Source: Escherichia coli (GTDB lineage: Bacteria > Pseudomonadota > Gammaproteobacteria > Enterobacterales > Enterobacteriaceae). From it: a stretch of 2,037 nt of DNA. The stretch lies in assembly GCF_003334405.1 (NCBI RefSeq), contig NZ_QOWM01000040.1. One strand, given 5' to 3'. Made by a program: the position numbers and the translations under genes. Positions 1-2,037 of the stretch are shown here, piece after piece; the stretch's first letter is position 1, and every line of letters starts with the position of its first letter. The notes under the pieces are model-generated. The model did no database searches and had not been told where the DNA came from. It saw only the letters and a program-made list of their open reading frames with translations.

Positions 1-846
1 AACCAGATGGACCCGGTGTACACGCCGGCGCGAAAAATCCACCTGTACCACTGCGACCATCGCGGCCTGCCGCTGGCGCTCATCAGCACGGAAGGGGCAA
101 CAGCGTGGTGCGCAGAATATGATGAATGGGGCAACCTGCTGAATGAAGAGAACCCGCATCAGCTGCAGCAGCTTATCCGGCTGCCGGGGCAGCAGTATGA
201 TGAGGAGTCCGGCCTGTATTACAACCGCCACCGCTATTATGACCCGCTGCAGGGGCGATATATCACTCAGGATCCGATTGGACTGAAGGGGGGATGGAAC
301 CTGTATGGATATCAATTGAATCCGATATCAGACATCGACCCCCTGGGTTTATCTATGTGGGAGGATGCAAAATCGGGGGCATGTACTAATGGTCTTTGCG
401 GCACACTATCCGCTATGATAGGTCCAGATAAATTTGATTCTATAGATAGCACCGCATATGGCGCCTTAAATAAAATAAATAGCCAATCTATTTGCGAAGA
501 TAAAGAGTTCGCTGGTTTAATATGTAAGGATAATAGTGGCAGATATTTCTCAACAGCACCTAACCGAGGAGAAAGAAAAGGATCATATCCATTCAATAGC
601 CCTTGCCCTAATGGTACTGAGAAAGTATCAGCTTATCATACTCATGGTGCAGATAGTCATGGAGAATATTGGGACGAAATATTTTCAGGTAAAGATGAGA
701 AAATAGTTAAAAGTAAAGATAACAATATCAAGTCATTTTATTTAGGTACGCCCAGTGGTAATTTTAAAGCAATAGATAACCACGGGAAGGAAATAACAAA
801 CAGAAAAGGATTACCTAATGTCTGCAGAGTTCATGGTAATATGTAA
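1..846 (+). CDS. rhsB: Rhs family protein, C-terminal portion (5'-partial): end of conserved Rhs core plus variable C-terminal toxin domain (CT) of unassigned fold
   Basis: Open frame from nt 1 (the gene begins upstream) to TAA at 844-846. The translation carries the Rhs core-end signature [42 protein letters not shown]. Composition drops right after the second DPxGL, from about 58% GC to about 33% GC (hand counts of sampled 60-nt stretches), as expected for a conserved core fused to a variable toxin tip. The symbol is a recollection that the 127-aa downstream ORF followed by an H-repeat matches the K-12 RhsB element; it may instead be an orthologous Rhs locus. Confidence 0.85.
271..351 (+). 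other. Rhs core/CT demarcation motif: DPIGL (271-285), 17-residue spacer, DPLGL (337-351); probable autoproteolysis and core/tip boundary
   Basis: Read directly from the translation: D89-P-I-G-L93 and D111-P-L-G-L115. In Rhs and YD-repeat proteins the DPxGL-(~18 aa)-DPxGL motif marks the end of the conserved core and lies next to the site where the C-terminal tip is released. Confidence 0.8.
806..810 (+). promoter_or_regulatory. Shine-Dalgarno (AAGGA) for the immunity gene, 7-nt spacer to ATG 818
   Basis: The sequence aaaAGGAttacctaATG is seen directly. It lies inside the 3' end of the rhs coding sequence, consistent with translational coupling. Confidence 0.55.
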
Positions 847-1201
847 AAAAATATTGTTTAGGAACTGTGTCATTGTATCTTTGTTTGTTTTTACATACAA
901 CACATGGGCGCAGTGTAATAATAATATTAAAATAATGCGCAAGTATGAAAGTGAAGGTAAATATACCGTTAGAAATTTGGTTAAAAATAAAGCTATAGCA
1001 TTGGAATTAGCTGAGATATATGTTAAGAATCGTTATGGGCAGGATGCCGCAGAAGAAGAAAAACCATACGAAATCACTGAGTTAACAACAAGTTGGGTTG
1101 TTGAAGGTACCATTCACTCAGACCAAATTGCTGGTGGGGTTTTTATTATAGAAATAGGCAAAAATGATGGGAGAATTCTGAATTTTGGCCACGGAAAATA
1201 A
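818..1201 (+). CDS. yhhH: Putative cognate Rhs immunity protein (127 aa) encoded immediately downstream of and overlapping the rhs CT
   Basis: ORF 818-1201 with an SD 7 nt upstream. It overlaps the rhs stop by 29 nt in a different frame and is AT-rich like the toxin tip, the typical arrangement of Rhs CT/immunity pairs. Length and position match my recollection of K-12 yhhH (127 aa, between rhsB and yhhI). The N-terminus [33 protein letters not shown] is hydrophobic and signal-peptide-like. In-frame alternative starts exist at 833 and 935, but neither has a comparable SD. Confidence 0.75.
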
Positions 1202-1292
1202 GTATGTAAGGATAATCAAACATCGTGTGCGCTGATGGCAGAGTAGGTGGAGGACTCCAGACAGTCAAACGATAGAAAAAGATAGCCTTTAT

Positions 1293-1297
1293 GGAGG
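1293..1297 (+). promoter_or_regulatory. Shine-Dalgarno (GGAGG) for the yibA-like ORF, 8-nt spacer to ATG 1306
   Basis: The sequence atGGAGGttcctgcaATG is seen directly. This supports ATG 1306 (MSNTYQKRK...) as the start rather than the upstream ATG 1291 used in the ORF track. Confidence 0.6.
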
Positions 1298-1305
1298 TTC
1301 CTGCA

Positions 1306-1652
1306 ATGTCAAATACATACCAGAAAAGAAAGGCAAGTAAAGAGTATGGTTTATATAATAAATGTAAGAAACTAAATGATGATGAATTATTTCGCTTACT
1401 TGATGATCGCAATTCCTTGAAAAGGATTTCATCTGCCAGAGTATTACAGTTAAGAGGGGGGCAAGACGCTGTTAGATTGGCAATTGAATTCTGCACTGAC
1501 AAAAATTATATCCGTAGAGATATCGGAGCATTTATACTCGGGCAAATATAAATTTGCAAAAAATGCGAAGATAATGTTTTTAATATTTTGAACAATATGG
1601 CATTGAATGATAAGAGTGCTTGCGTTCGAGCTACGGCAATCGAGTCAACGGC
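1306..1652 (+). pseudogene. Orphan HEAT-repeat immunity gene remnant (YibA-like), interrupted by an in-frame TAA at 1549-1551 and 3'-truncated by the H-repeat insertion
   Basis: Translation from 1306 is MSNTYQKRKASKEYGLYNKCKKLNDDELFRLLDDRNSLKRISSARVLQLRGGQDAVRLAIEFCTDKNYIRRDIGAFILGQI, then a stop, then the same frame continues ICKKCEDNVFNILNNMALNDKSACVRATAIESTA... The second half contains a canonical HEAT/PBS-lyase repeat signature (D-x-x-x-C-V-R-A-T-A-I-E). The N-terminus matches what I recall of E. coli YibA, the HEAT-repeat protein encoded just downstream of rhsA. About 115 codons are present, against roughly 280 for a full-length YibA-type protein. The frame runs on into non-homologous sequence until TAA 1687-1689. 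Confidence 0.7.
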
Positions 1653-1770
1653 CAGGGAAAGATCATCAAAAGTTCACTTTTTGCACTAAATAATTCGCAT
1701 TTTATGTTTAAAAATTGAGATATTCCTTATTACCTGAAGCTGTTTTTTATTGCTTATACATGATCAAATA

Positions 1771-1790
1771 CTCCTTACCTAATTAAGGAG
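1771..1790 (+). promoter_or_regulatory. Perfect 7-bp inverted repeat (CTCCTTA-cctaat-TAAGGAG) able to form an RNA hairpin sequestering the transposase Shine-Dalgarno sequence
   Basis: Seen directly: 1771-1777 ctcctta is the exact reverse complement of 1784-1790 taaggag, with a 6-nt loop. The 3' arm contains the SD AAGGAG (1785-1790), which lies 6 nt upstream of ATG 1797. Confidence 0.5.
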
Positions 1791-1796
1791 AACAAA

Positions 1797-2037
1797 ATGG
1801 AACTTAAAAAATTGATGGAACATATTTCTATTATCCCCGATTACAGACAAACCTGGAAAGTGGAACATAAATTATCGGATATTCTACTGTTGACTATTTG
1901 TGCCGTTATTTCTGGTGCAGAAGGTTGGGAAGATATAGAGGATTTTGGGGAAACACATCTCGATTTTTTGAAGCAATATGGTGATTTTGAAAATGGTATT
2001 CCTGTTCACGATACCATTGCCAGAGTTGTATCCTGTA
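1797..2037 (+). CDS. yhhI: ISAs1-family (H-repeat-associated) transposase, N-terminal 80 codons (3'-partial, runs off the window)
   Basis: AAGGAG SD at 1785-1790, ATG at 1797, and an open frame to the window end. The translation is [80 protein letters not shown], the conserved N-terminal region of H-repeat-associated proteins (YhhI, YdcC and YbfD in E. coli). The symbol is chosen from the RhsB-like context, since the paralogues are near-identical at this end. Confidence 0.85.

Follow-up and report, generated by a model that had tools for sequence, protein, structure and literature searches.

An account of the RhsB element of Escherichia coli K-12 reportedly comes from the group of C. W. Hill (Feulner et al. 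1990, Zhao et al. 1993, Hill et al. 1994), and the GC-rich core, AT-rich extension, and downstream open reading frame of this account are said to be the founding, defining description of Rhs elements. Jackson et al. 2009 found that core and tip are decoupled, with cores ending in the signature DPXG-(18)-DPXG, tips and downstream DNA poor in GC, and tips common to loci with different cores, and proposed homologous recombination in the core as the driver (PMC2935791). In Salmonella Typhimurium, Koskiniemi et al. 2014 attributed a tip swap to recombination of the main rhs with an orphan, within a 522-bp stretch in which the two are 95% identical (PMC3967940). At the protein level, Rhs1 of P. laumondii carries two DPLGL-type motifs 17 residues apart and is cut after the second; the D1338N substitution in the second DPLGL abolishes cleavage, the toxin begins 5 residues later, at A1343, and the CT domains have a GC content and a codon bias unlike those of the shell (PMC8636562).

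Here, we analyzed a 2037-nt stretch of E. coli DNA (referred to throughout as the window) that shares 100% identity with E. coli strain D53-1 and 99.9% with K-12. The GC break at the rhsB core/tip junction has already been described, and our results agree with Jackson 2009, Koskiniemi 2014, and Jurenas 2021; what we provide is a map of the junction and of both edges of the block that begins there.

Results

Organization of the window

From 5′ to 3′, the window contains the 3′ end of rhsB, yhhH, a yibA remnant, and an H-rpt/ISEc1 element (Table 1), and the chromosomal neighbors of the rhsB locus in the K-12 annotation are nikR and yhhJ, one on either side. Within the rhsB core end, RHS PF03527 (Pfam) covers query residues 13–49 (E-value of 4.4e-16), and the C-terminal core end matches Rhs cores in the PDB at E-values of 1e-21 to 1e-25. 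The K-12 core-end copies used for comparison (n = 8) were rhsA to rhsE and the orphans yibJ, ybfO, and ylbH. Orphans with core fragments occur at the rhsA, rhsC, and rhsD loci (yibJ, ybfO, and ylbH).

Table 1. Coordinates of the features in the window (position 1 is its first letter).
Feature	Position	Strand	Remarks
rhsB CDS	1–846	+	open frame; stop codon 844–846
rhsB core 3′ end (shell and C-terminal plug-coding part)	1–299	+	99.9–100% identity to annotated rhsB; GC-rich
First DPxGL motif, DPIGL	271–285	+	residues 91–95, read from the sequence
Exchangeable b cassette, 954 nt	300–1253	+	both junctions set against K-12 rhsA
Tip-linked end of the "core", 17 codons including PxxxxDPxGL (322–351)	300–351	+	motif conserved as protein; DNA specific to the b-tip
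Second DPxGL motif, DPLGL	337–351	+	residues 113–117; predicted catalytic Asp at 337–339
RhsB C-terminal toxin domain, Tox-JAB-2/DUF4329	352–846	+	GC 0.368, GC3 0.25
yhhH, predicted cognate immunity gene	818–1201	+	annotated YhhH; 29-nt overlap with rhsB 3′ end; GC 0.336
Relic of displaced rhsA-type tip: last 10 codons and stop, last 32 nt of CDS	1254–1285	+	SRQSNDRKR* versus RhsA end SRQSNDKKR*
a-type remnant: rhsA 3′ end, intergenic spacer, first 347 nt of yibA	1254–1652	+	97.2% identity to the rhsA locus
H-rpt/ISEc1 left end (ISAs1 family), yhhI transposase CDS from 1797	1653–2037	+	cuts off the yibA remnant

Size and placement of the GC break

The GC content of the window falls from 0.589 over positions 1–299 (0.566 over 1–339) to 0.356 over positions 340–2037 (0.354 over 352–2037); the entire rhsB core has a GC content of 0.62 and the flanking housekeeping genes 0.56 to 0.57. 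The original prediction for this DNA was a sharp break from ~58% GC upstream to ~33% downstream, and such a break is real and roughly of that size, with the upstream figure matched and the downstream figure slightly low. Specifically, a test for one break within the window gave an LLR of 30.3, whereas 500 shuffles averaged 2.8 and never exceeded 8.7, and the LLR rose to 168 with the entire rhsB gene and the downstream region as context. The contrast between core and tip in GC content and codon bias recurs in each of the eight K-12 copies (for rhsB, a GC content of 0.62 versus 0.37), and the last 51 nt ahead of the motif end/cleavage site have a GC content of 0.31 to 0.45 in every one of them.

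A scan of GC and codon usage, suggested as a check along with the original prediction, revealed that GC3 drops across the junction from 0.724 to 0.238 (~0.73 over the core end, 1–299), so that the largest change lies in the synonymous third positions. GC1 and GC2 also shift somewhat, as they might if the break were a by-product of amino acid composition, i.e., of YD repeats rich in G/R/P/Y/D adjoining a toxin rich in K/N/I. However, the drop in GC3 points to a shift at the nucleotide level and therefore not to an amino acid effect, the AT-richness extends past the tip through intergenic DNA, yhhH (0.336), and the yibA remnant (0.359), and the DNA identity of the paralogues collapses at the same place (see below). 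The chance that amino acid composition accounts for the break is close to nil, since the shift in GC3 and the data on allelic replacement jointly amount to a refutation of this reading.

The position of the break is less sharply defined than its existence. The maximum-likelihood change-point falls at 413 (support, 292 to 465) when only the window is used and at 303 (support, 255 to 414) in the context of the whole gene, whereas a step in GC3 is best placed at 364 (support, 301 to 382). Fitting a logistic ramp puts the midpoint at nt 335, with ~15 codons as the preferred width, but the ramp gains only 1.29 units of lnL over a step for one extra parameter, which is not significant; widths from 0 to ~30 codons are acceptable, and a gradual change, the opposite of what had been claimed, is thus not favored over an abrupt one. 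The position is blurred because of fine structure around the junction: an AT-rich stretch at 300–336 (GC content of 0.378) is followed by a GC island formed by the DPLGL codons at 337–351 (0.60), an intermediate stretch at 352–420 (0.478), and the remainder of the tip at 421–846 (0.35). The intermediate stretch is rich in Gly/Ala/Cys, with GC-rich first and second codon positions and a GC3 that is already 0.35. Composition by itself cannot place the break to a few codons, the support intervals being 80–170 nt wide. The predicted position of 330–360 is central in the 300–420 transition zone, around the ramp midpoint of 335, but the claimed precision of within a few codons is beyond what composition can give (support, 255 to 414). 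A second modular junction near 418, suggested by the GC change-point at 413 and by a match to H130 limited to 300–418, was rejected, as H130 proved to carry a b-tip (the tip found in the window) cut by an IS1 insertion.

Homology ends upstream of the second DPxGL

Alignment of the core end with other rhs genes, also suggested as a check, located a collapse of identity at 299|300. The identity of rhsB to rhsA, yibJ, rhsC, and ybfO is 0.90 to 0.97 at 271–300, 0.57 to 0.73 at 301–330, 0.40 to 0.47 at 331–360, and 0.13 to 0.33 at 361–390, and the core end up to position 299 is 90–100% identical to the core ends of these four genes. Compared with K-12 rhsA at the nucleotide level, 299 is the last common base, and the first mismatches are at 300 and 301. 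This edge lies 12 codons ahead of the Asp of DPLGL and 17 codons ahead of the predicted cleavage site (351|352). The break had been said to coincide with the second DPxGL to within a few codons; the homology edge of the b-tip lies upstream of that motif.

We compared the divergence points of 16 distinct core ends from six strains, restricting the comparison to pairs whose tips are unrelated and whose core ends share at least 90% identity. All 27 pairs that include the b-tip diverge at 300, while other tip pairs diverge at 318–327 (28 pairs) or 339–342 (6 pairs). No pair among the 16 core ends diverges at or after 352, save two that do so at 413 and whose tips are probably related. Since the divergence points vary, the junction is not fixed at one place, and every tip comes with a DPxGL of its own. 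The 300–351 segment is 100% identical wherever the b-tip was found (Z30, PI6, and 58-3) and has a GC content of 0.442 (0.378 without DPLGL). Judging from these alignments, the last 3–17 codons of what has been called the core, DPxGL included, belong to each tip in a version of its own, placing the DNA boundary upstream of the protein boundary.

In the protein, 17 residues separate DPIGL from DPLGL, which corresponds to 18 residues between DPIG (271–282) and DPLG (337–348), and the core-end signature DPXG-(18)-DPXG is present in rhsB. The longer motif PxxxxDPxGL is also present, as P108-ISDI-DPLGL117 (nt 322–351), and in the form PxxxxD(P/S)xGL it is kept in 8 of the 8 K-12 core ends; beyond the motif, the proteins are unrelated, RhsD excepted. 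Cleaved Rhs core chains in the PDB (Tse5, 8cp6_B; S. bongori, 8qjd_A and 8qjb_A) stop at the residue aligned with query L117 (nt 349–351). Because these chains end at the aligned L117 and the motif spacing of Rhs1 matches, we predict autoproteolysis of RhsB after L117 (351|352).

Right edge of the cassette and remnants beyond it

The counterpart of the b cassette at the K-12 rhsA locus is a 413-nt a-specific segment. Binned identity to rhsA is 0.00 to 0.42 within 300–1253 and 0.88 to 1.00 outside, with rhsA homology restarting exactly at 1254 (right edge, 1253|1254) and the rhsA stop codon corresponding to window positions 1283–1285. In the comparison with K-12 rhsA, we found neither homology nor notable microhomology at the 1253|1254 junction; as this junction lies in no recognizable homology, one double homologous crossover does not explain the replacement.

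The yibA remnant, derived from a HEAT-repeat immunity-type gene, is annotated as a pseudogene at ~1306–1656 and has an in-frame stop codon at 1549–1551. From 1653 onward, H-rpt is 96.6% identical to the ydcC H-rpt and 91.6% identical to the ybfQ H-rpt. A search for a displaced or orphan tip array revealed no core fragment in 1202–2037, and only the last 32 nt of the a-tip and yibA persist past yhhH. Since a non-functional 3′ scrap of the a-tip and an old immunity-type gene persist, the most parsimonious account has the b cassette taking the place of an a-type tip and leaving the older immunity gene behind, and it is from these relics that we infer the direction of replacement (b over a). H-rpt was also considered as the carrier of the cassette and was rejected, given that it begins at 1653 and that the b cassette also precedes full-length yibA at the rhsA locus.

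Predicted toxin and immunity genes carried by the cassette

DUF4329 PF14220 (Pfam) matches query residues 150–268 with an E-value of 3.8e-39 (model positions 2–114 of 116). The family motif H-T-H is found at residues 213–215 (nt 637–645) and is followed by SGKD, both being conserved in RhsD-CT. A table in Zhang et al. 2012 equates Tox-JAB-2 with "DUF4329 in Pfam", whereas the text describes the two as partly overlapping; the Tox-JAB-2 motif is given as E, H[ST]H, S, D, and the family is linked to RHS repeats and several secretion routes, with Imm-NTF2 family 2 as its partner and Imm-NTF2-2 entered as "E. coli only" (PMC3482391). Salmonella surveys place Tox-JAB-2/DUF4329 among RNase-type Rhs tips (PMC10469887), and a nuclease activity has been proposed for the domain. 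In the product of the adjacent gene, YhhH, residues 60–127 match Imm-NTF2-2 PF15631 (Pfam; E-value of 3.4e-26).

Both genes of the cassette have homologues at rhsD: RhsD-CT shares 52% amino acid identity with RhsB-CT (E-value of 2e-64), YbbC, encoded downstream of rhsD, shares 56% with YhhH, and toxin and immunity genes co-vary in the RhsD/YbbC pair. The rhsD core end is only ~78% identical to that of rhsB in DNA, and the similarity crosses the junction unbroken (71% over 4–741). Only rhsD conserves 352–843; conservation in all rhs paralogues, named beforehand as the outcome contrary to separate acquisition, was not seen. A word-indexed protein search for tip homologues, including homologues on unrelated scaffolds, yielded, apart from one Salmonella salamae protein (75% identity), almost exclusively E. 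coli fragments, and the broad distribution of such tips rests on Zhang et al. 2012 (PMC3482391). Internal promoters in the AT-rich tip that could drive yhhH were considered and rejected, as a consensus scan gave 3 sites versus 7.5 expected from shuffles, none of them well placed.

The composition of the tips is itself uniform. All eight K-12 tips are AT-rich and, although unrelated, fall within a narrow band (GC content of 0.37 to 0.43 and GC3 of 0.18 to 0.34), the RhsB and RhsD tips both have a GC content of 0.37 despite only 52% protein identity, i.e., after long divergence and with no drift to core or genome values, and Serratia tips lie ~20 points under their core (67.7 versus 46.4%; PMC2935791). 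Such similarly low GC among unrelated tips is not obviously expected of independent acquisitions from arbitrary donors, and it would fit a low GC that is no passive trace of a foreign donor but is maintained in tip and immunity genes by selection or by a distinct mutational regime common to all tip cassettes, e.g., through H-NS-type xenogeneic silencing that holds toxins in check or through a long stay in a shared AT-rich mobile gene pool. We regard this as an unlikely, though not negligible, explanation of the break. Promoter-like sites are not enriched in the window (3 versus 7.5 expected), and maintained AT-richness is compatible with separate acquisition, which the allelic data show directly, and would add to it rather than replace it. 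If AT-richness is maintained, for instance to attract H-NS-type silencing, the core/tip GC step would be a regulatory boundary as well as a homology boundary.

The cassette at a second locus and across E. coli genomes

The b cassette is not confined to the rhsB locus. In Z30 and PI6, it lies at the rhsA chromosomal locus (yibF ... yibH, mtlA), with 96–100% identity in every 50-nt bin, and is followed by full-length yibA and further orphans. At the sites that separate K-12 rhsA from rhsB, Z30 has the rhsA-type base at six sites within 104–282 as well as in the 5′ flank, and the rhsB-type base at all sites in 300–1189 except for two third-state sites. This A-to-B switch would fit a crossover at 283–299 or later core gene conversion up to the homology edge. 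Among 5426 complete E. coli genomes, the block 300–1253 was found at a coverage of at least 80% in 2684, as a single copy and with at least 99% identity in 2641, while 3888 genomes gave a match to the core end, each at a median of 5 places, for a total of roughly 19,900 core ends.

The confinement of the Z30 switch at informative sites to 283–299, along with an ISAs1-family transposase gene 0.8 kb downstream, could alternatively indicate a dedicated site-specific site of the integron or shufflon type, with the adjacent H-rpt/ISEc1 transposase as a possible recombinase. We find this very improbable: the divergence point differs by tip pair (300, 318–327, or 339–342), the b cassette at the rhsA locus precedes full-length yibA rather than the H-rpt-truncated remnant of K-12, H-rpt starts at 1653 and interrupts yibA rather than the cassette, and the conservation of the junction is fully explained by the protease motif. 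Set against integron- or shufflon-type cassettes, which have one fixed junction sequence and a dedicated recombinase, the junctions here vary over 300–342, and at the rhsA locus the cassette has no linked recombinase. Moreover, homologous recombination within a 522-bp stretch accounts for the one swap seen experimentally (PMC3967940), so that the break, which had been proposed as the recombination point for tip swapping, is better described as an edge of homology.

Four observations support separate histories for the core and the tip-immunity cassette: identity collapses at the junction, the cassette occurs patchily (2684 genomes versus 3888 with the core end), the rhsA locus is occupied by the same cassette in other strains, and the RhsD/YbbC homologues sit on a diverged core. 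On this point, our comparisons sustain the original prediction that the tip-immunity cassette was acquired separately from the core.

Discussion

Our data show the break itself, both edges of the block, the presence of the block at two loci, its homologues in RhsD/YbbC, and the domains that it encodes. Very probably, the break is the junction of two evolutionary modules, namely a GC-rich conserved core and an AT-rich exchangeable toxin-immunity cassette that is swapped via core homology. Parts of this explanation are proposals, namely the direction in which tips were replaced, the mechanism of crossover, RhsB cleavage, and the activities of toxin and immunity protein. The upstream module is the Rhs core (~62% GC), encoding a YD-repeat shell and a C-terminal aspartyl-protease plug, and the downstream module is the cassette at 300–1253 (~35% GC), encoding a putative Tox-JAB-2/DUF4329 toxin and the Imm-NTF2-2 protein YhhH. 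By joining the core 17 codons ahead of the predicted cleavage site, the cassette brings along its own copy of PxxxxDPLGL. Tip exchange would proceed by homologous recombination, with the near-identical core as the left-hand substrate, and the GC break marks the end of homology and not a specific recombination site. On the right, the relics indicate that the b cassette took over most of a previous a-type tip without loss of the older immunity gene, which H-rpt later truncated in the rhsB locus. The toxin would be released by the predicted autoproteolysis after L117 (351|352).

Several points count against this two-module explanation or limit it, among them the uniformly low GC of unrelated tips and the right-hand junction outside recognizable homology, both noted above. 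By composition, a step cannot be separated from a ramp of up to ~30 codons. Under the classical displacement model, the ousted tip should have kept a piece of core; the DNA downstream of yhhH contains no such piece. On a separate and less probable reading, the K-12 RhsB element would be a secondary copy of an element from the rhsA locus, one in which a b cassette took the place of an a-type tip through a non-homologous join on the right and the older immunity gene was kept.

The junction illustrates how polymorphic toxin genes diversify, with a conserved delivery scaffold supplying the homology for swapping toxin-immunity cassettes. The same short motif closes the homology and directs toxin release by self-cleavage (predicted for RhsB). 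The gain is a precise map, comprising the edges of the block, a DPxGL borne by the tip, and the relic of an earlier tip with its immunity gene, which is useful for annotation and for the design of tip-swap and cleavage experiments. The map leaves the current understanding of rhsB unchanged, as the principle is established for the locus.

With regard to known systems, the locus resembles the displacement model of Jackson et al. in its decoupled core and tip, its DPXG-(18)-DPXG end, its GC-poor tip, and a tip shared between loci; unlike in that model, most of the a-type tip at the rhsB locus was lost by deletion, instead of being carried downstream together with a piece of core, and only its last 32 nt and its immunity gene are left. 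As in the main and orphan rhs of Salmonella Typhimurium, a tip would have been swapped onto a full-length rhs through core homology upstream of the variable region. However, the Salmonella orphan is in the same locus and the event was seen experimentally, whereas the rhsB event is historical, is deduced from sequence, and involves two chromosomal loci.

E. coli K-12 is not known to have a T6SS. RhsB is similar to the T6SS Rhs effectors (Rhs1/Tre23; Tse5, 8cp6; S. bongori Rhs, 8qjb-d; and P. protegens RhsA, 7q97), with plug alignments at E-values of 1e-21 to 1e-25. Like them, it has two DPxGL motifs 17 residues apart and a Leu aligned with the end of the cleaved chain, the cleavage being observed in those effectors and predicted in RhsB. 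Finally, the window represents the same locus as the K-12 RhsB element (core and extension, yhhH, and the H-rpt yhhI) and shows no difference in kind from it; to the description of that element, we add the nucleotide-level edges at 299|300 and 1253|1254 and the presence of the cassette at the rhsA locus in other strains.

Mosaic core ends and a probable former a-type tip at the rhsB locus

The core end (window 1-299) was compared with K-12 rhsA (L002), another K-12 locus (L003) and a further compared locus (L007). Over positions 1-120, rhsB matches yibJ, the orphan core end at the rhsA locus, exactly, whereas rhsA differs from rhsB there; over positions 121-180, rhsB is closer to rhsA, and a 10-nt patch at 159-168 distinguishes it from Z30, in which the b cassette (tip plus yhhH) occupies the rhsA locus. 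The core ends are mosaics, and the pattern of matches suggests gene conversion among paralogous core ends.

Downstream of yhhH lies a 32-nt remainder of an rhsA-type tip (the last 10 codons plus the stop). Judged from sequence, this relic indicates that an a-type tip with yibA formerly stood at the rhsB locus of the window. In the window, the yibA-like HEAT-repeat gene survives only as a pseudogene that carries an in-frame stop and is cut off by the H-rpt; in Z30, its counterpart beside the b cassette at the rhsA locus is intact.

Features of the window and of compared loci (nucleotide positions)
Feature	Window	L011	L008
yhhH-like homology	760-1253	3001-3487	6001-6435
rhsA-type tip relic	1254-1285
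yibA-like pseudogene	1291-1655
In-frame stop in pseudogene	1549-1551
Pseudogene/H-rpt junction	1652/1653
Gly/Asp difference (codon)	461 (460-462)
IS1 insertion, strain 58-3	418

Variation in the tip and the yhhH region

Three positions separate the window from K-12 ER3413, and one of them, in the toxin domain, exchanges Gly and Asp (STAYGALNK vs STAYDALNK). Several strains (H7, H92 and H130) have the RhsB tip or the yhhH region broken by IS1; in strain 58-3, where the insertion lies at window position 418, the remainder of the element has been deleted. The eight K-12 tips (8/8; rhsA to rhsE plus orphans) are unrelated in sequence and share nearly equal, low GC contents (0.37-0.43; GC3, 0.18-0.34), and such uniformly low GC is not obviously expected as the outcome of independent acquisitions.

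A yhhH-like gene with an identity of only about 89% occurs in 273 genomes, frequently frameshifted, and its homology to the window starts at about position 760, within the 3' end of the RhsB tip. Its neighbors are fragments annotated as "pentapeptide repeat-containing protein," with a full-length yibA following. This gene may be the decayed remains of a sister cassette, or else an immunity gene left as an orphan.

Start and location of the predicted immunity protein YhhH

As annotated, YhhH has a hydrophobic, signal-peptide-like N terminus (window 818-1000 region), and a second possible start, an ATG at position 937, would yield an 88-aa protein. We therefore treat both the start and the cellular location of YhhH as uncertain. 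The annotated N terminus is not conserved with YbbC, the homolog encoded downstream of rhsD: residue 34 is the first that aligns with YbbC, and the Pfam domain does not begin until residue 60.
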